14,316 nucleotides of DNA from a virus (lineage: Duplodnaviria > Heunggongvirae > Uroviricota > Caudoviricetes). Positions 1 through 14,316 of the stretch are shown piece after piece (the stretch's first letter is position 1; every line of letters starts with the position of its first letter). Both the position numbers and the translations under genes were made by a program. Location of the stretch: the IMG/VR virus record IMGVR_UViG_2547132279_000010; one strand, 5' to 3'. Below the pieces are notes generated by a model that saw nothing but the letters and a program-made list of their open reading frames with translations, did not search any database and was not told the origin of the DNA.

Positions 1-1949
<1,949 letters not shown>

Positions 1950-1964
1950 TCCGGGGAGTCAGAG

Positions 1965-2387
1965 ATGTTCCTGAAAACCGAATCATTTGAACATAACGGT
2001 GTGACCGTCACGCTTTCTGATCTGTCAGCCCTGCAGCGTATTGAGCATCTCGCCCTGATGAAACGGCAGGCAGAACAGGCGGAGTCAGACAGCAACCGGA
2101 AGTTTACTGTGGAAGACGCCATCAGAACCGGCGCGTTTCTGGTGGCGATGTCCCTGTGGCATAACCATCCGAAGAAGACAAAGCTGCCTTCCATGAATGA
2201 AGCCGTTAAACAGATTGAGCAGGAAGTGCTTACCACCTGGCCCACGGAGGCAATTTCTCATGCTGAAAACGTGGTGTACCGGCTGTCCGGTATGTATGAG
2301 TTTGTGGTGAATGATGCTCCTGAACAGACAGAGGACGCCGGGCCTGCAGAGCCTGTTTCTGCGGGAAAGTGTTCGATGGTGAGCTGA
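1965..2387 (+). CDS. G: Tail assembly chaperone G
   Basis: Translation MFLKTESFEHNGVTVTLSDLSALQRIEHLALMKRQAEQAE...PAEPVSAGKCSMVS is near-identical to lambda gpG. A GGGGAG ribosome-binding site lies upstream of the ATG. Confidence 0.9.
   Translation: MFLKTESFEHNGVTVTLSDLSALQRIEHLALMKRQAEQAESDSNRKFTVEDAIRTGAFLVAMSLWHNHPKKTKLPSMNEAVKQIEQEVLTTWPTEAISHAENVVYRLSGMYEFVVNDAPEQTEDAGPAEPVSAGKCSMVS
2363..2369 (+). promoter_or_regulatory. Programmed -1 frameshift slippery heptamer G_GGA_AAG (G to G-T)
   Basis: G-frame codons GCG GGA AAG TGT place the heptamer at 2363-2369. A -1 slip enters the T frame exactly (2369 GTG TTC GAT...). The motif and its position near the G 3' end are as in lambda. Confidence 0.8.
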
Positions 2388-2803
2388 GTTTTGCCCTGAA
2401 ACTGGCGCGAGAGATGGGGCGACCCGACTGGCGTGCCATGCTTGCCGGGATGTCATCCACGGAGTATGCCGACTGGCACCGCTTTTACAGTACCCATTAT
2501 TTTCATGATGTTCTGCTGGATATGCACTTTTCCGGGCTGACGTACACCGTGCTCAGCCTGTTTTTCAGCGATCCGGATATGCATCCGCTGGATTTCAGTC
2601 TGCTGAACCGGCGTGAGGCTGACGAAGAGCCTGAAGATGATGTGCTGATGCAGAAAGCGGCAGGGCTTGCCGGAGGCGTCCGCTTTGGCCCGGACGGGAA
2701 TGAAGTTATCCCCGCTTCCCCGGATGTGGCGGACATGACGGAGGATGACGTAATGCTGATGACAGTATCAGAAGGGATCGCAGGAGGAGTCCGGTATGGC
2801 TGA
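2363..2803 (+). CDS. T: T segment of the G-T tail assembly chaperone fusion, reached by -1 frameshift from G (full fusion spans 1965..2803)
   Basis: The -1 frame after the slippery site reads VFDGELSFALKLAREMGRPDWRAMLAGMSSTEYADWHRFY...GIAGGVRYG, which matches lambda gpT. It has no independent ATG or ribosome-binding site. Its stop overlaps the H start. Confidence 0.85.
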   Translation, partial: GKVFDGELSFALKLAREMGRPDWRAMLAGMSSTEYADWHRFYSTHYFHDVLLDMHFSGLTYTVLSLFFSDPDMHPLDFSLLNRREADEEPEDDVLMQKAAGLAGGVRFGPDGNEVIPASPDVADMTEDDVMLMTVSEGIAGGVRYG

Positions 2804-5375
2804 ACCGGTAGGCGATCTGGTCGTTGATTTAAGTCTGGATGCGGCCAGATTTGACGAGCAGATGGCCAGAGTCAGGCGTCATTTTTCCGGTACGGAAACT
2901 GATGCGAAAAAAACAGCGGCAGTCGTTGAACAGTCGCTGAGCCGACAGGCGCTGGCTGCACAGAAAGCGGGGATTTCCGTCGGGCAGTATAAAGCCGCCA
3001 TGCGTATGCTGCCTGCACAGTTCACCGACGTGGCCACGCAGCTTGCAGGCGGGCAAAGCCCGTGGCTGATCCTGCTGCAACAGGGGGGGCAGGTTAAGGA
3101 CTCCTTCGGCGGGATGATCCCCATGTTCAGGGGGCTTGCCGGTGCGATCACCCTGCCGATGGTGGGGGCCACCTCGCTGGCGGTGGCGACCGGTGCGCTG
3201 GCGTATGCCTGGTATCAGGGCAACTCAACCCTGTCCGATTTCAACAAAACGCTGGTCCTTTCCGGCAATCAGGCGGGACTGACGGCAGATCGTATGCTGG
3301 TCCTGTCCAGAGCCGGGCAGGCGGCAGGGCTGACGTTTAACCAGACCAGCGAGTCACTGACGGCGCTGGTGAATGCCGGTGTGCGTGGTGGTGAGCAGTT
3401 TGAGGCGATCAGCCAGAGTGTGGCGCGTTTCTCCTCTGCATCCGGCGTGGAGGTGGACAAGGTCGCTGAAGCCTTCGGGAAGCTGACCACAGACCCGACG
3501 TCGGGGCTGACGGCGATGGCGCGTCAGTTCCATAACGTGACGGCGGAGCAGATTGCGTATGTTGCTCAGTTGCAGCGTTCCGGAGATGAAGCCGGGGCAT
3601 TGCAGGCGGCGAACGAGGCCGCAACGAAAGGGTTTGATGACCAGACCCGCCGCCTGAAAGAGAACATGGGCACGCTGGAGACCTGGGCAGACAGGACAGC
3701 ACGGGCATTCAAATCCATGTGGGATTCGGTGCTGGATATTGGTCGCCCGGACACTGCCCAGGGAATGCTGGAGAAAGCAGAAAAGGCTTTTGATGAGGCG
3801 GACAAAAAATGGCAGTGGTATCAGAGCCGGAGCCACCGGCGCGGTAAAACCTCAGCATTTCTTGCCAATCTCCGGGGAGCATGGGAGGACAGAGCGAATG
3901 CGCAACTTGGGCTTTCAGCCGCCACGTTGCAGGCCGATCTTGAAAAGGCCAGAGAGATGGCAGCAAAGGACTGGGCCGAGTCTGAGGCATCACGGCTGAA
4001 ATATACCGAAGAGGCGCAGAAGGCTTACGAACGGCTGCAGACGCCGCTGGAGAAATATACCGCCCGTCAGGAAGAACTGAACAAGGCACTGAAAGACGGG
4101 AAAATCCTGCAGGCGGATTACAACACGCTGATGGCGGCGGCGAAAAAGGATTATGAAGCGACGCTGAAAAAGCCGAAACAGTCCGGCGTGAAGGTGTCTG
4201 CGGGCGATCGTCAGGAAGACAGTGCTCATGCTGCCCTGCTGACGCTTCAGGCTGAACTCCGGACGCTGGAGAAGCATGCCGGAGCAAATGAGAAAATCAG
4301 CCAGCAGCGCCGGGATTTGTGGAAGGCGGAGAGCCAGTTCGCGGTACTGGAGGAGGCGGCGCAACGTCGCCAGCTGTCTGCACAGGAGAAATCCCTGCAG
4401 GCGCATAAAGATGAGACGCTGGAGTACAAACGCCAGCTGGCTGCACTTGGCGACAAGGTTACGTATCAGGAGCGCCTGAACGCGCTGGCGCAGCAGGCGG
4501 ATAAATTCGCACAGCAGCAACGGGCAAAACGGGCCGCCATTGATGCGAAAAGCCGGGGGCTGACTGACCGGCAGGCAGAACGGGAAGCCACGGAACAGCG
4601 CCTGAAGGAACAGTATGGCGATAATCCGCTGGCGCTGAATAACGTCATGTCAGAGCAGAAAAAGACCTGGGCGGCTGAAGACCAGCTTCGCGGGAGCTGG
4701 ATGGCAGGCCTGAAGTCCGGCTGGAGTGAGTGGGAAGAGAGCGCCACGGACAGTATGTCGCAGGTAAAAAGTGCAGCCACGCAGACCTTTGATGGTATTG
4801 CACAGAATATGGCGGCGATGCTGATCGGCAGTGAGCAGAACTGGCGCAGCTTCACCCGTTCCGTGCTGTCCATGATGACAGAAATTCTGCTTAAGCAGGC
4901 AATGGTGGGGATTGTCGGGAGTATCGGCAGCGCCATTGGCGGGGCTGTTGGTGGCGGCGCATCCGCGTCAGGCGGTACAGCCATTCAGGCCGCTGCGGCG
5001 AAATTCCATTTTGCAACCGGAGGATTTACGGGAACCGGCGGCAAATATGAGCCAGCGGGGATTGTTCACCGTGGTGAATTTGTCTTCACGAAGGAGGCAA
5101 CCAGCCGGATTGGCGTGGGGAATCTTTACCGGCTGATGCGCGGCTATGCCACCGGCGGTTATGTCGGTACACCGGGCAGCATGGCAGACAGCCGGTCGCA
5201 GGCGTCCGGGACGTTTGAGCAGAATAACCATGTGGTGATTAACAACGACGGCACGAACGGGCAGATAGGTCCGGCTGCTCTGAAGGCGGTGTATGACATG
5301 GCCCGCAAGGGTGCCCGTGATGAAATTCAGACACAGATGCGTGATGGTGGCCTGTTCTCCGGAGGTGGACGATGA
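2796..5375 (+). CDS. H: Tail tape measure protein H (859 aa)
   Basis: The N-terminus MAEPVGDLVVDLSLDAARFDEQMARVRRHFSGTE... and C-terminus ...GGYVGTPGSMADSRSQASGTFEQNNHVVINNDGTNGQIGPAALKAVYDMARKGARDEIQTQMRDGGLFSGGGR match lambda gpH. An AGGAGG ribosome-binding site precedes the start. The start overlaps the T stop. Confidence 0.95.
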   Translation: MAEPVGDLVVDLSLDAARFDEQMARVRRHFSGTETDAKKTAAVVEQSLSRQALAAQKAGISVGQYKAAMRMLPAQFTDVATQLAGGQSPWLILLQQGGQVKDSFGGMIPMFRGLAGAITLPMVGATSLAVATGALAYAWYQGNSTLSDFNKTLVLSGNQAGLTADRMLVLSRAGQAAGLTFNQTSESLTALVNAGVRGGEQFEAISQSVARFSSASGVEVDKVAEAFGKLTTDPTSGLTAMARQFHNVTAEQIAYVAQLQRSGDEAGALQAANEAATKGFDDQTRRLKENMGTLETWADRTARAFKSMWDSVLDIGRPDTAQGMLEKAEKAFDEADKKWQWYQSRSHRRGKTSAFLANLRGAWEDRANAQLGLSAATLQADLEKAREMAAKDWAESEASRLKYTEEAQKAYERLQTPLEKYTARQEELNKALKDGKILQADYNTLMAAAKKDYEATLKKPKQSGVKVSAGDRQEDSAHAALLTLQAELRTLEKHAGANEKISQQRRDLWKAESQFAVLEEAAQRRQLSAQEKSLQAHKDETLEYKRQLAALGDKVTYQERLNALAQQADKFAQQQRAKRAAIDAKSRGLTDRQAEREATEQRLKEQYGDNPLALNNVMSEQKKTWAAEDQLRGSWMAGLKSGWSEWEESATDSMSQVKSAATQTFDGIAQNMAAMLIGSEQNWRSFTRSVLSMMTEILLKQAMVGIVGSIGSAIGGAVGGGASASGGTAIQAAAAKFHFATGGFTGTGGKYEPAGIVHRGEFVFTKEATSRIGVGNLYRLMRGYATGGYVGTPGSMADSRSQASGTFEQNNHVVINNDGTNGQIGPAALKAVYDMARKGARDEIQTQMRDGGLFSGGGR

Positions 5376-5701
5376 AGACCTTCCGCTGGAAAGTGAAACC
5401 CGGTATGGATGTGGCTTCGGTCCCTTCTGTAAGAAAGGTGCGCTTTGGTGATGGCTATTCTCAGCGAGCGCCTGCCGGGCTGAATGCCAACCTGAAAACG
5501 TACAGCGTGACGCTTTCTGTCCCCCGTGAGGAGGCCACGGTACTGGAGTCGTTTCTGGAAGAGCACGGGGGCTGGAAAGCCTTTCTGTGGACGCCGCCTT
5601 ATGAGTGGCGGCAGATAAAGGTGACCTGCGCAAAATGGTCGTCGCGGGTCAGTATGCTGCGTGTTGAGTTCAGCGCAGAGTTTGAACAGGTGGTGAACTG
5701 A
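5372..5701 (+). CDS. M: Minor tail protein M
   Basis: Translation MKTFRWKVKPGMDVASVPSVRKVRFGDGYSQRAPAGLNANLKTYSVTLSVPREEATVLESFLEEHGGWKAFLWTPPYEWRQIKVTCAKWSS... matches lambda gpM. The ATGA start/stop overlap with H is as in lambda. Confidence 0.9.
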   Translation: MKTFRWKVKPGMDVASVPSVRKVRFGDGYSQRAPAGLNANLKTYSVTLSVPREEATVLESFLEEHGGWKAFLWTPPYEWRQIKVTCAKWSSRVSMLRVEFSAEFEQVVN

Positions 5702-6399
5702 TGCAGGATATCCGGCAGGAAACACTGAATGAATGCACCCGTGCGGAGCAGTCGGCCAGCGTGGTGCTCTGGGAAATCGACCTGACAGAGGTCGGTGGAG
5801 AACGTTATTTTTTCTGTAATGAGCAGAACGAAAAAGGTGAGCCGGTCACCTGGCAGGGGCGACAGTATCAGCCGTATCCCATTCAGGGGAGCGGTTTTGA
5901 ACTGAATGGCAAAGGCACCAGTACGCGCCCCACGCTGACGGTTTCTAACCTGTACGGTATGGTCACCGGGATGGCGGAAGATATGCAGAGTCTGGTCGGC
6001 GGAACGGTGGTCCGGCGTAAGGTTTACGCCCGTTTTCTGGATGCGGTGAACTTCGTCAACGGAAACAGTTACGCCGATCCGGAGCAGGAGGTGATCAGCC
6101 GCTGGCGCATTGAGCAGTGCAGCGAACTGAGCGCGGTGAGTGCCTCCTTTGTACTGTCCACGCCGACGGAAACGGATGGCGCTGTTTTTCCGGGACGTAT
6201 CATGCTGGCCAACACCTGCACCTGGACCTATCGCGGTGACGAGTGCGGTTATAGCGGTCCGGCTGTCGCGGATGAATATGACCAGCCAACGTCCGATATC
6301 ACGAAGGATAAATGCAGCAAATGCCTGAGCGGTTGTAAGTTCCGCAATAACGTCGGCAACTTTGGCGGCTTCCTTTCCATTAACAAACTTTCGCAGTAA
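5701..6399 (+). CDS. L: Minor tail protein L (C-terminal cysteine cluster)
   Basis: Translation MQDIRQETLNECTRAEQSASVVLWEIDLTEVGGERYFFCNEQ...KDKCSKCLSGCKFRNNVGNFGGFLSINKLSQ matches lambda gpL. Its start overlaps the M stop by 1 nt. Confidence 0.9.
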   Translation: MQDIRQETLNECTRAEQSASVVLWEIDLTEVGGERYFFCNEQNEKGEPVTWQGRQYQPYPIQGSGFELNGKGTSTRPTLTVSNLYGMVTGMAEDMQSLVGGTVVRRKVYARFLDAVNFVNGNSYADPEQEVISRWRIEQCSELSAVSASFVLSTPTETDGAVFPGRIMLANTCTWTYRGDECGYSGPAVADEYDQPTSDITKDKCSKCLSGCKFRNNVGNFGGFLSINKLSQ

Positions 6400-6404
6400 A
6401 TCCC

Positions 6405-7148
6405 ATGACACAGACAGAATCAGCGATTCTGGCGCACGCCCGGCGATGTGCGCCAGCGGAGTCGTGCGGCTTCGTGGTAAGCACGCCGGAGGGGGAAAGA
6501 TATTTTCCCTGCGTGAATATCTCCGGTGAGCCGGAGGCGTATTTCCGTATGTCGCCGGAAGACTGGCTGCAGGCAGAAATGCAGGGTGAGATTGTGGCGC
6601 TGGTCCACAGCCACCCCGGTGGTCTGCCCTGGCTGAGTGAGGCCGACCGGCGGCTGCAGGTGCAGAGTGATTTGCCGTGGTGGCTGGTCTGCCGGGGGAC
6701 GATTCATAAGTTCCGCTGTGTGCCGCATCTCACCGGGCGGCGCTTTGAGCACGGTGTGACGGACTGTTACACACTGTTCCGGGATGCTTATCATCTGGCG
6801 GGGATTGAGATGCCGGACTTTTATCGTGAGGATGACTGGTGGCGTAACGGCCAGAATCTCTATCTGGATAATCTGGAGGCGACGGGGCTGTATCAGGTGC
6901 CGTTGTCAGCGGCACAGCCGGGCGATGTGCTGCTGTGCTGTTTTGGTTCATCAGTGCCGAATCACGCCGCAATTTACTGCGGCGACGGCGAGCTGCTGCA
7001 CCATATTCCTGAACAACTGAGCAAACGAGAGAGGTACACCGACAAATGGCAGCGACGCACACACTCCCTCTGGCGTCACCGGGCATGGCGCGCATCTGCC
7101 TTTACGGGGATTTACAACGATTTGGTCGCCGCATCGACCTTCGTGTGA
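6405..7148 (+). CDS. K: Tail assembly protein K (JAB/MPN metalloprotease-like plus NlpC/P60-like domains)
   Basis: Translation MTQTESAILAHARRCAPAESCGFVVSTPEGERYF...ALVHSHPGG (HxH JAMM-like motif) ...HGVTDCYTLFRDAYHLAGIEMPDF... matches lambda gpK. Confidence 0.9.
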   Translation: MTQTESAILAHARRCAPAESCGFVVSTPEGERYFPCVNISGEPEAYFRMSPEDWLQAEMQGEIVALVHSHPGGLPWLSEADRRLQVQSDLPWWLVCRGTIHKFRCVPHLTGRRFEHGVTDCYTLFRDAYHLAGIEMPDFYREDDWWRNGQNLYLDNLEATGLYQVPLSAAQPGDVLLCCFGSSVPNHAAIYCGDGELLHHIPEQLSKRERYTDKWQRRTHSLWRHRAWRASAFTGIYNDLVAASTFV

Positions 7149-7717
7149 AAACGGGGGCTGAAGCCATCCGGGCACTGGCCACACAGCTCCCGGCGTTTCG
7201 TCAGAAACTGAGCGACGGCTGGTATCAGGTACGGATTGCCGGGCGGGACGTCAGCACGTCCGGGTTAACGGCGCAGTTACATGAGACTCTGCCTGATGGC
7301 GCTGTGATTCATATTGTTCCCAGAGTCGCCGGGGCCAAGTCAGGTGGCGTATTCCAGATTGTCCTGGGGGCTGCCGCCATTGCCGGATCATTCTTTACTG
7401 CCGGAGCCACCCTTGCGGCATGGGGGGCAGCCATTGGGACCGGTGGTATGACCGGCATCCTGTTTTCTCTCGGTGCCAGTATGGTGCTCGGTGGTGTGGC
7501 GCAGATGCTGGCACCGAAAGCCAGAACTCCCCGTACACAGACAACGGATAACGGTAAGCAGAACACCTATTTCTCCTCACTGGATAACATGGTTGCCCAG
7601 GGCAATGTTCTGCCTGTTCTGTACGGGGAAATGCGCGTGGGGTCTCGCGTGGTTTCTCAGGAGATCAGCACGGCAGACGAAGGGGACGGTGGTCAGGTTG
7701 TGGTGATTGGTCGCTGA
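7046..7717 (+). CDS. I: Tail assembly protein I
   Basis: Translation MAATHTLPLASPGMARICLYGDLQRFGRRIDLRVKTGAEAIRALATQLPAFRQKL...GQVVVIGR matches lambda gpI. It overlaps the 3' end of K by about 100 nt in a different frame, as in lambda. Confidence 0.9.
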   Translation: MAATHTLPLASPGMARICLYGDLQRFGRRIDLRVKTGAEAIRALATQLPAFRQKLSDGWYQVRIAGRDVSTSGLTAQLHETLPDGAVIHIVPRVAGAKSGGVFQIVLGAAAIAGSFFTAGATLAAWGAAIGTGGMTGILFSLGASMVLGGVAQMLAPKARTPRTQTTDNGKQNTYFSSLDNMVAQGNVLPVLYGEMRVGSRVVSQEISTADEGDGGQVVVIGR

Positions 7718-7735
7718 TGCAAAATGTTTTATGTG

Positions 7736-7756
7736 AAACCGCCTGCGGGCGGTTTT
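7736..7756 (+). other. Perfect 8-bp hairpin (AAACCGCC-tgcg-GGCGGTTT) with T-rich 3' side in the I-J intergenic space
   Basis: Read directly from the sequence at 7736-7755, followed by T then GTCATTT. A GAGGAA ribosome-binding site and the J ATG (7778) lie about 20 nt downstream. The function is unknown; it could be a partial terminator or a processing/stability element. Confidence 0.3.
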
Positions 7757-7777
7757 GTCATTTATGGAGCGTGAGGA

Positions 7778-10700
7778 ATGGGTAAAGGCAGCAGTAAGGG
7801 GCATACCCCGCGCGAAGCGAAGGACAACCTGAAGTCCACGCAGCTGCTGAGTGTGATCGATGCCATCAGCGAAGGGCCGGTTGAAGGTCCGGTGGATGGA
7901 TTAAAAAGCGTGCTGCTGAACAGTACGCCGGTGCTGGACACTGAGGGGAATACCAACATCTCCGGTGTCACGGTGGTGTTCCGTGCCGGTGAGCAGGAGC
8001 AGACACCGCCGGAGGGGTTTGAATCCTCCGGCTCCGAGACGGTGCTGGGTACGGAAGTGAAATATGACACGCCGATCACCCGCACCATTACGTCTGCAAA
8101 CATCGACCGTCTGCGCTTTACCTTCGGCGTGCAGGCACTGGTGGAAACCACCTCAAAGGGGGACCGGAATCCGTCGGAAGTCCGCCTGCTGGTTCAGATC
8201 CAGCGTAATGGTGGCTGGGTGACGGAAAAAGACATCACCATTAAGGGCAAAACCACCTCGCAGTATCTGGCCTCGGTGGTGGTGGGTAACCTGCCGCCGC
8301 GCCCGTTCAATATACGGATGCGCAGGATGACGCCGGACAGCACCACAGACCAGCTGCAGAACAAAACGCTCTGGTCGTCATACACCGAAATCATCGATGT
8401 GAAACAGTGCTACCCGAACACGGCACTGGTCGGCGTGCAGGTGGATTCGGAGCAGTTCGGCAGCCAGCAGGTGAGCCGTAATTATCATCTGCGCGGGCGC
8501 ATTCTGCAGGTGCCGTCGAACTATAACCCGCAGACGCGGCAATACAGCGGTATCTGGGACGGAACGTTTAAGCCAGCATACAGCAACAACATGGCCTGGT
8601 GTCTGTGGGATATGCTGACCCATCCGCGCTACGGCATGGGGAAACGTCTTGGTGCGGCGGATGTGGACAAATGGGCGCTGTATGTCATCGGCCAGCATTG
8701 CGATCAGTCGGTGCCGGACGGTTTTGGCGGCACGGAGCCGCGCATCACCTGTAATGCGTACCTGACCACACAGCGCAAGGCGTGGGATGTGCTCAGTGAT
8801 TTCTGCTCTGCGATGCGCTGTATGCCGGTATGGAACGGGCAGACGCTGACGTTCGTGCAGGACCGACCGTCGGATAAGGTGTGGATCTATAACCGCAGTA
8901 ATGTGGTGATGCCGGATGATGGTGCGCCGTTCCGCTACAGCTTCAGCGCCCTGAAGGACCGCCATAATGCCGTTGAGGTGAACTGGATTGACCCGAATAA
9001 CGGCTGGGAGACGGCGACAGAGCTTGTGGAGGACACGCAGGCCATTGCCCGTTACGGTCGTAACGTCACGAAGATGGATGCTTTTGGCTGTACCAGCCGG
9101 GGGCAGGCACACCGCGCCGGGCTGTGGCTGATTAAAACAGAACTGCTGGAAACGCAGACCGTGGACTTCAGCGTGGGTGCCGAAGGGCTTCGCCATGTAC
9201 CGGGCGATGTCATTGAAATCTGCGATGATGACTATGCCGGTATCCGCACCGGCGGGCGCGTGCTGGCGGTAAACAGCCAGACCCGGACGCTGACGCTCGA
9301 CCGTGAAATCACGCTGCCATCTTCCGGCACCACGCTGATAAGCCTGGTTGACGGGCAGGGGAGTCCGGTCAGCGTGGAGGTTCAGTCCGTCACCGACGGC
9401 GTGAAGGTGAAAGTGAGCCGTGTTCCTGACGGCGTTGCTGAATACAGCGTATGGGGGCTGAAGCTGCCGACGTTGCGCCAGCGCCTGTTCCGCTGCGTGA
9501 GTATCCGTGAGAACGACGACGGCACGTATGCCATCACCGCCGTGCAGCATGTACCGGAAAAAGAGGCCATCGTGGATAACGGGGCGCACTTTGACGGCGA
9601 CCAGAGCGGCACGGTAAATGGTGTCACGCCGCCAGCGGTGCAGCACCTGACCGCAGAAGTCACCGCAGACAGCGGGGAATACCAGGTGCTGGCGCGCTGG
9701 GACACGCCGAAGGTGGTGAAGGGCGTGAGCTTCCTGCTTCGCCTGACCGTGGCAGCGGATGACGGCCGTGAGCGGCTGGTCAGCACGGCCCGGACGACGG
9801 AAACCACTTACCGCTTCACACAACTGGCTCTGGGGAACTACAGGCTGACAGTCCGGGCAGTAAATGCGTGGGGGCAGCAGGGCGATCCGGCATCGGTATC
9901 GTTCCGGATTGCCGCACCGGCAGCGCCGTCGCGGATTGAGCTGACGCCGGGCTATTTTCAGATAACCGCCACGCCGCATCTTGCGGTTTATGACCCGACG
10001 GTACAGTTTGAGTTCTGGTTCTCGGAAAAACGGATTGCGGATATCAGGCAGGTTGAAACCAGCGCGCGTTATCTTGGTACGGCACTGTACTGGATAGCCG
10101 CCAGTATCAATATCAAACCGGGCCATGATTATTATTTTTACGTTCGCAGTGTGAACACCGTTGGCAAATCGGCATTCGTGGAGGCTGTCGGTCAGCCGAG
10201 TGATGATGCATCCGGCTATCTGGATTTTTTCAAAGGCGAGATAGGGAAAACCCATCTGGCTCAGGAGCTGTGGACGCAGATTGATAACGGTCAGCTTGCG
10301 CCTGACCTGACTGAAATCAGGACGTCCATAACGGATGTCAGCAATGAAATAACACAGACCGTCAATAAGAAGCTGGAAGACCAGAGTGCAGCGATCCAGC
10401 AGATACAGAAGGTTCAGGTTGATACAAATAATAACCTGAACAGCATGTGGGCAGTGAAGCTGCAGCAGATGCAGGACGGACGCCTTTATATTGCGGGTAT
10501 CGGTGCCGGTATTGAGAACACCCCTGACGGCATGCAGAGTCAGGTGCTGCTGGCAGCAGACAGGATTGCGATGATTAATCCTGCGAATGGCAACACAAAG
10601 CCGATGTTTGTTGGTCAGGGCGATCAGATATTCATGAATGAAGTGTTCCTGAAACGCCTGACGGCCCCCACCATTACCAGCGGCGGTAATCCTCCGGCAT

Positions 10701-11257
10701 TTTCCCTGACATCAGACGGGAGACTGACGGCGAAAAATGCGGATATCAGTGGTAGTGTGAATGCGAACTCAGGAACGCTCAACAATGTCACGATTAACGA
10801 GAACTGTCGGGTTCTGGGAAAATTGTCCGCCAACCAGATTGAAGGCGATCTCGTTAAAACAGTGGGCAAAGCTTTCCCCCGGGACTCCCGTGCACCGGAG
10901 CGGTGGCCATCAGGAACCATTACCGTCAGGGTTTATGACGATCAGCCGTTTGACCGGCAGATTGTTATTCCGGCGGTGGCATTCAGTGGCGCTAAGCATG
11001 AGAGAGAGCATACTGATATTTACTCCTCATGCCGTCTGATAGTGCGGAAAAACGGTGCTGAAATTTATAACCGTACCGCGCTGGATAATACGCTGATTTA
11101 CAGTGGCGTTATTGATATGCCTGCCGGTCACGGTCACATGACACTGGAGTTTTCGGTGTCAGCATGGCTGGTAAATAACTGGTATCCCACAGCAAGCATC
11201 AGCGATTTGCTGGTTGTGGTGATGAAGAAGGCCACAGCAGGCATCACGATTAGCTGA
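7778..11257 (+). CDS. J: Tail tip / host-specificity protein J (1159 aa; central fibronectin-III-like repeats, C-terminal receptor-binding domain)
   Basis: Translation [58 protein letters not shown]... matches lambda gpJ over most of its length. The ribosome-binding site GAGGAA precedes the start. Only the last ~150 aa diverge. Confidence 0.95.
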
Positions 11258-11275
11258 ATTTTATAACCCAGATAC

Positions 11276-11300
11276 GGGCGCCAGAAATGGCGCCTTTTTT
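11276..11300 (+). terminator. Rho-independent terminator downstream of J (tJ-like)
   Basis: GGCGCC-agaaat-GGCGCC stem-loop (11277-11294) followed directly by a TTTTTT run (11295-11300). Confidence 0.7.
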
Positions 11301-11324
11301 ATTGCAGAAAAGCGAGAGGTAATT

Positions 11325-11924
11325 ATGCGTAAATTATGTGCTGTTATTCTGTCCGCAGCCATCTGTCTGTCCGTATCCGGTGCGCCTGCATGGGCGTCTG
11401 AGCAGCAGGCCACACTGAGCGCAGGGTATCTTCATGCCCGTACGAACGCTCCCGGCAGCGATAATCTGAACGGGATTAACGTGAAATACCGTTATGAGTT
11501 TACGGACACGCTGGGGCTGATTACGTCATTCAGTTATGCCAACGCTGAAGATGAGCAAAAAACGCATTACAGCGATACCCGCTGGCATGAAGATTCCGTG
11601 CGTAACCGCTGGTTCAGCGTAATGGCGGGGCCGTCTGTGCGCGTGAATGAATGGTTCAGCGCGTATGCGATGGCGGGTGTGGCTTACAGCCGTGTGTCGA
11701 CTTTCTCCGGGGATTATCTCCGCGTAACTGACAACAAGGGGAAAAAGCACGATGTGCTGACCGGAAGTGATGACGGTCGCCACAGCAACACGTCTCTGGC
11801 GTGGGGAGCTGGCGTGCAGTTTAACCCGACCGAATCCGTGGCCATTGATGTCGCTTATGAAGGCTCCGGCAGTGGTGACTGGCGCACTGACGGGTTCATC
11901 GTGGGTGTTGGTTATAAATTCTGA
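11325..11924 (+). CDS. lom: Lom-like outer membrane beta-barrel protein (Ail/Lom/PagC/OmpX family), a prophage moron
   Basis: Signal peptide [24 protein letters not shown]. The C-terminal half ...[30 protein letters not shown]...[28 protein letters not shown] is near-identical to lambda Lom, while the N-terminal half is more divergent. A GAGAGG ribosome-binding site precedes the start. Confidence 0.9.
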
Positions 11925-11950
11925 TTAGCCAGGTAACACAGTGTTATGAC

Positions 11951-11978
11951 AGCCCGCCGGTTCAGGCGGGCTTTTTTG
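11951..11978 (+). terminator. Rho-independent terminator downstream of lom
   Basis: AGCCCGCC-ggttca-GGCGGGCT 8-bp stem (11951-11972) followed by TTTTTTG. Confidence 0.7.
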
Positions 11979-11988
11979 TGGGGTGAAT

Positions 11989-14316
11989 ATGGCAGTAAAA
12001 ATTTCAGGTGTACTGAAAGACGGCACAGGAAAACCGGTACAGAACTGCACAATCCAGCTGAAAGCAAAACGTAACAGTACCACGGTGGTGGTGAACACGC
12101 TGGCATCTGAAAATCCGGATGAAGCCGGGCGTTACAGTATGGACGTTGAGTACGGTCAGTACAGCGTTATTCTGTTGGTGGAAGGATTCCCGCCGTCACA
12201 TGCCGGGACCATCACAGTGTATGAAGATTCCCGACCCGGTACGCTGAATGATTTTCTCGGTGCCATGACGGAGGATGATGCCCGTCCGGAGGCACTGCGC
12301 CGTTTTGAGCTGATGGTGGAAGAGGTGGCGCGTAACACGTCCGCAGTGGCACAGAACACGGCAGCCGCGAAGAAGTCAGCCAGTGATGCCAGCACATCAG
12401 CCCGTGAGGCGGCAACCCGTGCGACTGATGCTGCAGGCTCAGCACGTGCCGCCAGCACGTCAGCCGGACAGGCCGCGTCGTCGGCTCAGTCAGCGTCTTC
12501 CAGCGCAGGAACGGCATCGACAAAGGCCAGTGAAGCAGCGAAAAGTGCTGCCGCTGCAGAGTCCTCAAAAAGTGCGGCGGCCACCAGTGCCGGTGCGGCG
12601 AAAACGTCAGAAACGAATGCCGCAGCGTCACAACAATCAGCAGCCACTTCTGCATCCACCGCGACCACGAAAGCGTCAGAAGCTGCCACCTCAGCCCGGG
12701 ATGCGGCGGCCTCAAAAGAGGCAGCGAAATCATCAGAAACGAACGCATCCTTGAGCGCCAGTAGCGCAGCTTCCTCGGCAACGGCGGCAGGAAATTCCGC
12801 GAAGGCGGCAAAAACGTCCGAGACGAACGCCAGGTCTTCTGAGACGGCAGCGGGACAGAGCGCCTCAGCTGCGGCAGGCTCAAAAACAGCGGCTGCATTA
12901 TCTGCCAGTGCCGCGTCAACAAGTGCCGGGCAGGCCTCAGCCAGTGCCACCGCCGCCGGAAAATCGGCAGAAAGCGCCGCATCATCCGCTTCAACAGCCA
13001 CAACGAAGGCTGGCGAAGCCACTGAGCAAGCCACTGCAGCAGCGAGGTCTGCTTCTGCAGCAAAAACCTCTGAAACAAATGCAAAGACTTCAGCAGACAA
13101 TGCTGCTTCCTCTAAGGCGGCAGCCGCATCGTCCGCTGGTTCAGCGGCGTCATCGGCATCATCTGCGTCTGCTTCAAAAGATGAGGCGACCAGACAAGCG
13201 TCAGCAGCGAAAGGTAGTGCCACGACAGCAACAACGAAAGCATCAGAGGCGGCAGGCAGTGCGACGGCTGCATCTCAGAGCAAAGTTGCTGCTGAATCCG
13301 CGGCAACGCGTGCCGAAACAGCGGCAAAACGGGCAGAGGATATTGCTGATGCCGTATCTCTGGAAGATGCGAGCACGACGAAAAAAGGTGTGGTTCAGCT
13401 CAGCAGTGCGACCAACAGCACTTCCGAGTCACTGGCGGCAACACCAAAGGCAGTAAAGGCAGCATATGACCTTGCTAACGCAAAATATACCGCTCAGGAC
13501 GCAACGACGGCACGAAAAGGGATAGTTCAGCTCAGTAGCGCCACTAACAGCACATCTGAAACGCTGGCTGCGACGCCAAAAGCTGTTAAGGCGGTAATGG
13601 ATGAAACGAACAAGAAAGCGCCCTTAAATAGTCCTGCACTGACCGGAACGCCAACAACGCCAACTGCGCCGAAAGGGACTAATAATACTCAGATCGCAAG
13701 CACGGCTTATGTGATGGCCGCGATTGCCGCACTTGTAGACTCGTCGCCTGACGCACTGAATACGTTGAACGAGTTAGCGGCGGCGCTGGGAAACGACCCG
13801 AATTTTGCGACCACCATGACTAAAGCGCTTGCGGGTAAGCAACCGAAAGATGCCACCCTGACGGCGCTGGCCGGGCTTGCTACTGCGGCAGACAAGTTTC
13901 CGTATTTTACGGGGAATGATGTCGCCAGCCTGGCAACTCTGACAAAAGTCGGGCGGGATATTCTTGCGAAATCGACCGTTGCCGCTGTTATCGAATACCT
14001 CGGTTTACAGGAAACGGTAAATCAGGCTTCTGGCGCATTACAGAAAAAACAGAACGGCGCAGATATTCCAGGAAAAGATACCTTCACCAAAAATATTGGT
14101 GCCTGCCGCGCATATAGCGCATGGCTGAATATTGGTGGCGATAGTCAGACCTGGACAACCGCACAATTCATTTCGTGGCTGGAGAGTCAGGGGGCATTTA
14201 ACCATCCTTACTGGATGTGCAAAGGCTCATGGGCTTATGCAAACAATAAGGTCATTACAGATACAGGTTGCGGAAATATTTGTCTTGCAGGTGCTGTGGT
14301 GGAAGTTATTGGCACT
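11989..14316 (+). CDS. stf: Side tail fibre protein Stf-like, 3'-partial (776 codons open to the window end)
   Basis: The N-terminus MAVKISGVLKDGTGKPVQNCTIQLKAKRNSTTVVVNTLASENPDEAGRYSMDVEYGQYSVIL...FPPSHAGTITVYEDS matches lambda Stf. It is followed by a long Ala/Ser/Thr-rich shaft and two phage-tail-fibre repeats (KG[IV]VQLSSATNSTSE[ST]LAATPKAVK). My hand translation found no stop in this frame through 14316. The ORF track omits it, apparently because it has no stop inside the window. Confidence 0.85.
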   Translation, partial: MAVKISGVLKDGTGKPVQNCTIQLKAKRNSTTVVVNTLASENPDEAGRYSMDVEYGQYSVILLVEGFPPSHAGTITVYEDSRPGTLNDFLGAMTEDDARPEALRRFELMVEEVARNTSAVAQNTAAAKKSASDASTSAREAATRATDAAGSARAASTSAGQAASSAQSASSSAGTASTKASEAAKSAAAAESSKSAAATSAGAAKTSETNAAASQQSAATSASTATTKASEAATSARDAAASKEAAKSSETNASLSASSAASSATAAGNSAKAAKTSETNARSSETAAGQSASAAAGSKTAAALSASAASTSAGQASASATAAGKSAESAASSASTATTKAGEATEQATAAARSASAAKTSETNAKTSADNAASSKAAAASSAGSAASSASSASASKDEATRQASAAKGSATTATTKASEAAGSATAASQSKVAAESAATRAETAAKRAEDIADAVSLEDASTTKKGVVQLSSATNSTSESLAATPKAVKAAYDLANAKYTAQDATTARKGIVQLSSATNSTSETLAATPKAVKAVMDETNKKAPLNSPALTGTPTTPTAPKGTNNTQIASTAYVMAAIAALVDSSPDALNTLNELAAALGNDPNFATTMTKALAGKQPKDATLTALAGLATAADKFPYFTGNDVASLATLTKVGRDILAKSTVAAVIEYLGLQETVNQASGALQKKQNGADIPGKDTFTKNIGACRAYSAWLNIGGDSQTWTTAQFISWLESQGAFNHPYWMCKGSWAYANNKVITDTGCGNICLAGAVVEVIGT
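12330..13330 (+). repeat. Low-complexity Ala/Ser/Thr-rich degenerate repeat region encoding the Stf shaft
   Basis: Recurring AAKTSETNA, SAATSAG and ASSAQSASS-type motifs. The strong compositional bias generates long spurious antisense ORFs (12212..13084 and 12486..13223, minus strand). Confidence 0.6.
13375..13608 (+). repeat. Tandem pair of phage-tail-fibre repeat units (~40 codons each) within stf
   Basis: Unit 1 (~13375-13480) encodes TTKKGVVQLSSATNSTSESLAATPKAVKAAYDLANAKY. Unit 2 (~13504-13608) encodes TARKGIVQLSSATNSTSETLAATPKAVKAVMDETNKK. The copies are similar at protein level but carry many synonymous differences at DNA level, so the duplication is old rather than recent. Confidence 0.6.

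Follow-up and report, generated by a model that had tools for sequence, protein, structure and literature searches.

The J protein encoded in the window (the entire stretch of 14,316 nucleotides analysed here) ends in a receptor-binding domain (RBD) of the 1A2/VT1-Sakai type which, with a probability of about 85%, is an Ig-like domain that docks on OmpC rather than on LamB, the allele present here, with an arginine at position 1076 (R1076), being expected to behave like the gpJ variant 1A2. The first-pass annotation of the window had predicted, from the divergent C-terminus of J, that the phage would recognise not LamB but some other outer-membrane protein, for instance a different porin, and this is supported both by the near-identity of the RBD to that of the OmpC-using 1A2 and by the structure of the related gpJ A8 in complex with OmpC. 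The use of OmpC by this RBD type being already published, the prediction is right but not new.

The J gene and its domain layout

The window corresponds to a lambda-like tail block of E. coli, comprising a truncated V, G/T, H, M, L, K, I, J, a lom-like gene and the start of stf. J, which encodes the tip attachment protein or central tail fibre, is an intact open reading frame of 1159 residues on the plus strand (7778..11257) with 83% identity to lambda J overall, and is placed as is typical of lambda, 3' of H-M-L-K-I and 5' of lom and stf. Six J-specific Pfam families were recovered above their cut-offs and in order, namely FNIII-A_GpJ, Phage-tail_3, Ig_J, Ig_J_second, Phage_Tail_Tip, and Ig_GpJ_C, the latter spanning residues 1029-1159. 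Pairwise protein alignment with lambda J (NC_001416, 1132 aa) shows that residues 1-800 (7778..10177, plus strand), which comprise the hub and the FNIII/Ig domains, are lambda-like, 784 of these 800 positions being identical (98%). The alpha-helical-shaft module that follows (residues 801-930; 10178..10567, plus strand) is divergent, with 52/102 identical residues (51%) and a 28-residue insertion. Then comes a conserved central-straight-fibre segment (residues 931-1000; 10568..10777, plus strand), 87% identical to lambda (61/70) and 100% identical to phage Kati, which would serve as an upstream recombination arm. Finally, residues 1001-1159 (10778..11254, plus strand) form the RBD, assigned to the 1A2/VT1-Sakai type on the basis of identity, Pfam, and AlphaFold2 fold.

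Over this last part, 69 of 159 residues are shared with lambda J (residues 974-1132), so that the C-terminal divergence noticed in the first-pass annotation was borne out at 43% identity, and not above 90%; the lambda C-terminus that it had quoted also proved correct when checked against the lambda genome. Its description of J as lambda-like through about residue 1000 holds for residues 1-800 and 931-1000 but fails for the shaft at residues 801-930. In the same line, the 27-residue excess that it reported (1159 vs 1132) is real, but arises from the 28-residue shaft insertion (nt 10178-10567) minus one residue in the RBD, and not from a longer RBD.

In the conserved fibre segment, F952 (nt 10631-10633, within '[11 protein letters not shown]') is the counterpart of lambda F924 and is conserved. 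Residue F924 of lambda J triggers HepS, a prophage-encoded abortive-infection nuclease (PMC13043305), and the window J is therefore predicted to trigger HepS as well.

RBD types and mosaic boundaries

Pairwise identities among the phages compared define four RBD groups. The lambda type, represented by lambda itself, is 43% identical to the window RBD, the 434 type (434 and Kati) 44-45%, with 434 at 45%, and the A8 type (A8, Chlobot, and mEp460_4F5) 64-69%, with A8 and Chlobot at 64% and mEp460_4F5 at 69%, while the 1A2/VT1-Sakai type (VT1-Sakai and PhiR55_1) reaches 98-99%, with PhiR55_1 at 98% and VT1-Sakai at 99%. The window RBD is thus not of the lambda, 434, or A8 subtype, two differences in loop length adding to the distance from the last of these. 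Phage Chlobot has exactly the RBD sequence given for A8 in the PDB (100% identity). The long-tailed EHEC phage phi330, which targets OmpC, was also considered as a relative of the same type, and was rejected, its RBD being 35-40% identical to those of 434 and lambda according to its paper.

The limits of the domain were located by scoring DNA identity along J in 100-nt bins against lambda, Kati, and VT1-Sakai. Identity to lambda, at 88% before nt 10778, is reduced to 52-62% from there on, and identity to Kati, which is 99-100% at 9978-10777, is 46-72% across 10778-11277 and returns to 89-99% in lom. VT1-Sakai shows the reverse pattern, the first 2.2 kb of J having 54-93% DNA identity and the RBD (10778-11277) 97-100%. 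Such an abrupt collapse at about 10780, together with the recovery in lom, argues for a sharp mosaic, or recombination, junction near this position rather than for gradual drift. As judged from these alignments, the RBD is a cassette of about 480 bp with a conserved flank on either side, the fibre segment '[32 protein letters not shown]' preceding it and lom following it, and lambda-like J proteins carry at least four such exchangeable cassettes, of which the 1A2/VT1-Sakai type is one. The conserved central-straight-fibre segment and lom would let homologous recombination swap the RBD between lambdoid phages or prophages.

The shaft appears as a module of its own. Its long form recurs, at 95-100% identity, in Kati, Chlobot, mEp460_4F5, PhiR55_1, and VT1-Sakai, with three RBD types among them, and phage 434 combines lambda's short shaft with the RBD type of Kati. 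Since the same shaft is found whatever the RBD type, the shaft assorts independently of the RBD. Besides, the long shaft is common to many natural lambdoid J proteins and would lengthen the central fibre.

Neighbouring tail genes

The conserved flank downstream of the RBD cassette is a lom-like outer-membrane protein gene (11325..11924, plus strand; Pfam Ail_Lom, E 1.7e-126). It is followed by the side tail fibre gene stf (11989..14316, plus strand; Pfam phage_tail_N and Phage_fiber_2), whose N-terminal 776 codons are present and which runs off the end of the window and of the contig. A terminator-like hairpin with a T-run lies between J and lom (11276..11303, plus strand), in the position where the annotation of phage 434 also has a terminator, and a second terminator-like hairpin with a T-run is found directly 3' of lom (11951-11980), the pair bracketing lom as a unit of its own. 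Upstream of J, the H gene (2796-5375) encodes a tape measure protein of 859 aa that is essentially identical to that of phage PhiR68_2. One segment of it, at about nt 3760-3985 (residues about 322-392), differs from lambda, with 15-30 of 50 positions identical per bin and six additional residues, and is the same in PhiR68_2. Residues 300-400 of the PhiR68.2 tape measure were singled out as divergent in a published study, in which this phage was reported not to need the inner-membrane ManYZ complex and to be only modestly affected by the SNIPE defence nuclease (PMC13190303).

Structure of the receptor-binding domain

Among solved structures, the best sequence match for J is 'A8 gpJ 713' (PDB 9wca/9wcb, E 1.5e-108), with lambda J (8xcj/8xck) ranking lower. 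Entry 9wcb is entitled 'Open state of A8 gpJ 713 central tail fiber with OmpC G17 from E. coli EDL933', 9wca being the closed state, and the A8 RBD of 9wcb is 64% identical to the window RBD. The modelling of the C-terminal domain that the first-pass annotation had proposed was carried out with AlphaFold2 on J residues 977-1159, as a monomer and with an alignment of 16 sequences. The large protein search had recovered, for the most part, short fragments and pseudo-proteins with frameshifts, and the lambda and 434 types were absent from the 120 proteins listed; the alignment behind the model is shallow for that reason. The model, whose confidence is moderate (mean pLDDT 76.7, pTM 0.63), shows a beta-sandwich, and its top four PDB matches by Foldseek are 9wca/9wcb and 8xck/8xcj (E 3e-19 to 8e-17, query-normalised TM 0.67-0.69), which means that the predicted fold matches the entries of both the OmpC-bound A8 and the LamB-binding lambda J. 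Within the limits of this moderate-confidence model, the window RBD has the same Ig-like fold as the A8 RBD (E 3e-19, query-normalised TM 0.67-0.68).

In lambda, four distal loops of the Ig-like domain insert into LamB (Ge and Wang). When close relatives of the window RBD are compared, variation peaks at 1075-1081, 1098-1109, 1118-1121, and 1130-1136. Variability in these relatives is not concentrated in the loops of the model compared with its strands (mean entropy 0.68 vs 0.63, p = 0.42), and no claim is therefore made of a divergence confined to receptor-contacting loops.

Receptor data from gpJ 1A2

The gpJ variants 1A2 and A8 are chimeras in which natural variants were substituted for everything in lambda gpJ from residue 964 to the C-terminus (Brödel et al., Nature 2024, PMC11338833). 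Given that lambda residue 964 corresponds to G992 of the window J, the part exchanged in these chimeras coincides with the divergent segment. The 1A2 sequence used for comparison is DNA machine-read from the supplement, with dropped bases and five unreadable RBD residues. It was compared with the window RBD by frameshift-tolerant protein-to-DNA alignment, plain tblastn yielding, on account of the dropped bases, fragmented and misleading matches of 67%. In this machine-read sequence, 148 of the 154 readable residues are identical to the window RBD. Four of the six mismatches adjoin obvious reading errors, including an internal stop; the remaining ones are F1069, which is read as L and could be a genuine difference, and R1076, at which 1A2 has K as VT1-Sakai does.

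Particles carrying 1A2 were reported to reach about 98% delivery into MG1655 devoid of lamB and ompC when these cells are given the OmpC of EDL933, and about 2% with K-12 OmpC, while the wild-type, LamB-positive MG1655 allows about 5% delivery by 1A2 compared to 98% by wild-type lambda (PMC11338833). In the same study, 1A2 was active on 20 of 23 natural OmpC variants, with at least 76% delivery at the top MOI; the variants refusing it are G1, G2, and G40, the values for G1 being the same as those of the K-12 OmpC panel, and A8, unlike 1A2, accepts K-12 OmpC (PMC11338833). In a later preprint, 1A2 serves as an O157-targeting tip. As regards the natural phages bearing this RBD (VT1-Sakai, PhiR55_1, and 2G7b), the literature search found no receptor data.

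The proposed mechanism is that the last 159 residues of J would trimerise at the tail tip and dock on the trimeric porin OmpC, this RBD being predicted to accept most natural OmpC alleles, including that of O157 EDL933, but not the K-12 allele. Docking on OmpC would then trigger the opening of the tail tip, as described for lambda on LamB.

The shared fold and the 43% identity with the LamB-binding RBD of lambda could also mean that the divergent domain is another sequence solution for binding the same receptor, all the more so as LamB is also the receptor of phage 21, whose J is lambda-like. This is highly improbable: the near-identical 1A2 works in a lamB deletion and fails, at the above-mentioned 5%, in LamB-positive MG1655 with its K-12 OmpC, and the nearest solved relative, A8, was captured bound to OmpC. 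A distinct question is whether the window allele, with its R1076, its hybrid J backbone, and its long shaft, would have a range of OmpC alleles other than that of 1A2, or an additional or different receptor. The R1076 codon (AGA, 11003..11005, plus strand) encodes the sole RBD difference from VT1-Sakai J in the sequence alignment, and the residue sits in a loop whose length varies between RBD types and which may contact the receptor. Moreover, one of the four stretches in which close relatives vary most contains this residue, and a single J mutation in phage 21 opens a new receptor. Nevertheless, the exchange between R and K is a conservative one, the RBD agrees with that of VT1-Sakai J at all of the 158 remaining positions, and 1A2 already tolerates 20/23 OmpC variants, which makes an altered range unlikely. 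Docking on OmpC, with an R1076 allele that presumably behaves like 1A2, hence remains the preferred reading.

Prevalence of the RBD

Searching the complete E. coli genomes with the window RBD DNA (10780-11257) recovered it in 3376 of 5426, often in several copies per genome, the best match having at least 95% identity in 2106 records. The lambda RBD DNA was found in just 98 of the same 5426 genomes, which, among the matches listed, include laboratory-type strains. The window RBD is the usual allele in E. coli genomes, and that of lambda the rare one. An RBD with at least 95% protein identity occurs in 53 records of the phage collection, mostly Stx1/Stx2 and other prophages of O157-type strains. 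The RBD type on J is a practical predictor of the E. coli strains that are open to lambdoid or Stx-converting phages, or to lambda-derived delivery particles. The 1A2/VT1-Sakai type is already exploited in engineered particles against O157, and the window adds nothing new on the receptor.

A defective prophage remnant

The locus that carries this J is a dead, defective prophage remnant and not a functional tail module. An IS3-family element occupies the start of the window on the minus strand (1..1245; NCBIfam transpos_IS3), with OrfA at 867..1214 and OrfB at 1..747, the latter cut by the window start. It abuts the major tail gene V (1251..1949, plus strand) at about its 15th codon, so that V is devoid of some 14 codons at its start, and its frame is preceded by in-frame stops; this truncation point, at about codon 15, was placed against the lambda V sequence. 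No similarity to lambda or its relatives was found before nt 1251 in the window comparisons. On the draft contig AELC01000016.1, the sole contig with this exact J, ynfA and speG lie just beyond the IS3 element, on the side away from the truncated V, and the contig ends inside stf, 3 kb past J. The ynfA locus is the site of the Qin prophage in K-12. Head, connector, Z, and U genes are lacking at the locus, where V is truncated, ynfA is directly beyond IS3, and the DNA upstream is chromosomal. As V is truncated by IS3 with chromosomal DNA upstream, the locus is a remnant, and the J protein is therefore probably never used from it. Intact RBD cassettes thus persist in dead prophage remnants, from which they could be picked up by recombination.

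The window was also compared as a whole, by means of mismatch maps, with the complete genome of E. coli O114:H49 90-9280, and proved to be a hybrid of two prophage regions of that strain. Positions 1-9565 match a remnant on the ynfA side with 99.9% identity, just four mismatches occurring between 3984 and 9891, whereas 9566-14316 match a prophage on the potB side without a single mismatch, the last mismatch being at 9565. The crossover therefore falls inside J, in the interval 9566..9891, with the ynfA-side remnant on its left and the potB-side prophage on its right. The two regions are inverted in 90-9280 and about 476 kb apart, and the ynfA remnant of that genome has a J with a 434-type RBD and an IS3 element further split by IS30. 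An origin of the window wholly in the potB-side prophage, to which 9800-12300 are 100% identical, was rejected by the whole-window comparison. Beyond stf in this potB-side prophage (17162-20568 of that stretch, outside the window), two opposed tail-fibre-assembly genes are found together with tfa fragments and a short ORF of the 'recombinase family', an arrangement that resembles what is left of an invertible host-range switch of the tail fibre.

The window is thus either one junction of a real recombination, by chromosomal inversion, or an assembly chimera. That the ynfA-side backbone was joined to the 1A2-type RBD, lom, and stf by misassembly across the near-identical J genes of two co-resident prophage regions is a serious possibility, although short of an even chance. 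The exact J is indeed known from the single draft contig AELC01000016.1 (samples_with_this_contig = 3), which ends in stf, and the switch falls in a 327-bp stretch that is identical in both regions. The three closest complete genomes do not show the hybrid, the two halves of the window being found there apart from each other, in prophage regions of opposite orientation. However, the repeats are inverted, so that genuine recombination leading to a chromosomal inversion would give exactly this junction, and the J reading frame is intact. A real and recent exchange, in an ETEC lineage, of the distal host-range block (the C-terminal ~40% of J with the RBD, lom, and stf) between co-resident prophage regions can accordingly be proposed, albeit tentatively. 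It would have proceeded by recombination between the inverted J genes, thereby inverting about 476 kb of chromosome, and a dead remnant would have switched from a 434-type to a 1A2-type RBD. Since the window RBD is present at 100% identity in the potB-side prophage of 90-9280 as well, the question of a chimera leaves the identity of the RBD unchanged, but the particular combination of modules in the window should not be over-interpreted.

Comparison with known systems

The closest system with receptor data, gpJ 1A2, departs from the window J by the short shaft of lambda, recoded DNA, a K for R1076, and a private source strain. Among natural phages, VT1-Sakai (AP000400) has a J whose RBD is identical to that of the window at 158/159 residues and which shares the long shaft (95%), but whose N-terminal two thirds are just 54-93% identical at the DNA level; the J genes of PPompW and of the Stx2a prophages of O157 group with it as relatives with the same RBD. 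The VT1-Sakai record splits J into two CDSs that overlap and bear the remark 'truncated by a mutation' (AP000400, 686-4158). The RBD of the phage 434/Kati/WGPS6 type is an OmpC-targeting cassette too, on the same J scaffold, but has 44-45% identity to the window RBD and longer loops; Kati J is 100% identical to the window J in the shaft and fibre segments, and yet carries this 434-type RBD. Compared to the window, the A8 RBD has a loop after 'KHE' that is five residues longer, and a loop after 'FPR' that is four residues shorter. Finally, the lambda RBD (PDB 8xcj/8xck) is the same Ig-like domain, at the same position of J and between the same conserved flanks, but with 43% identity, and it is a LamB binder.
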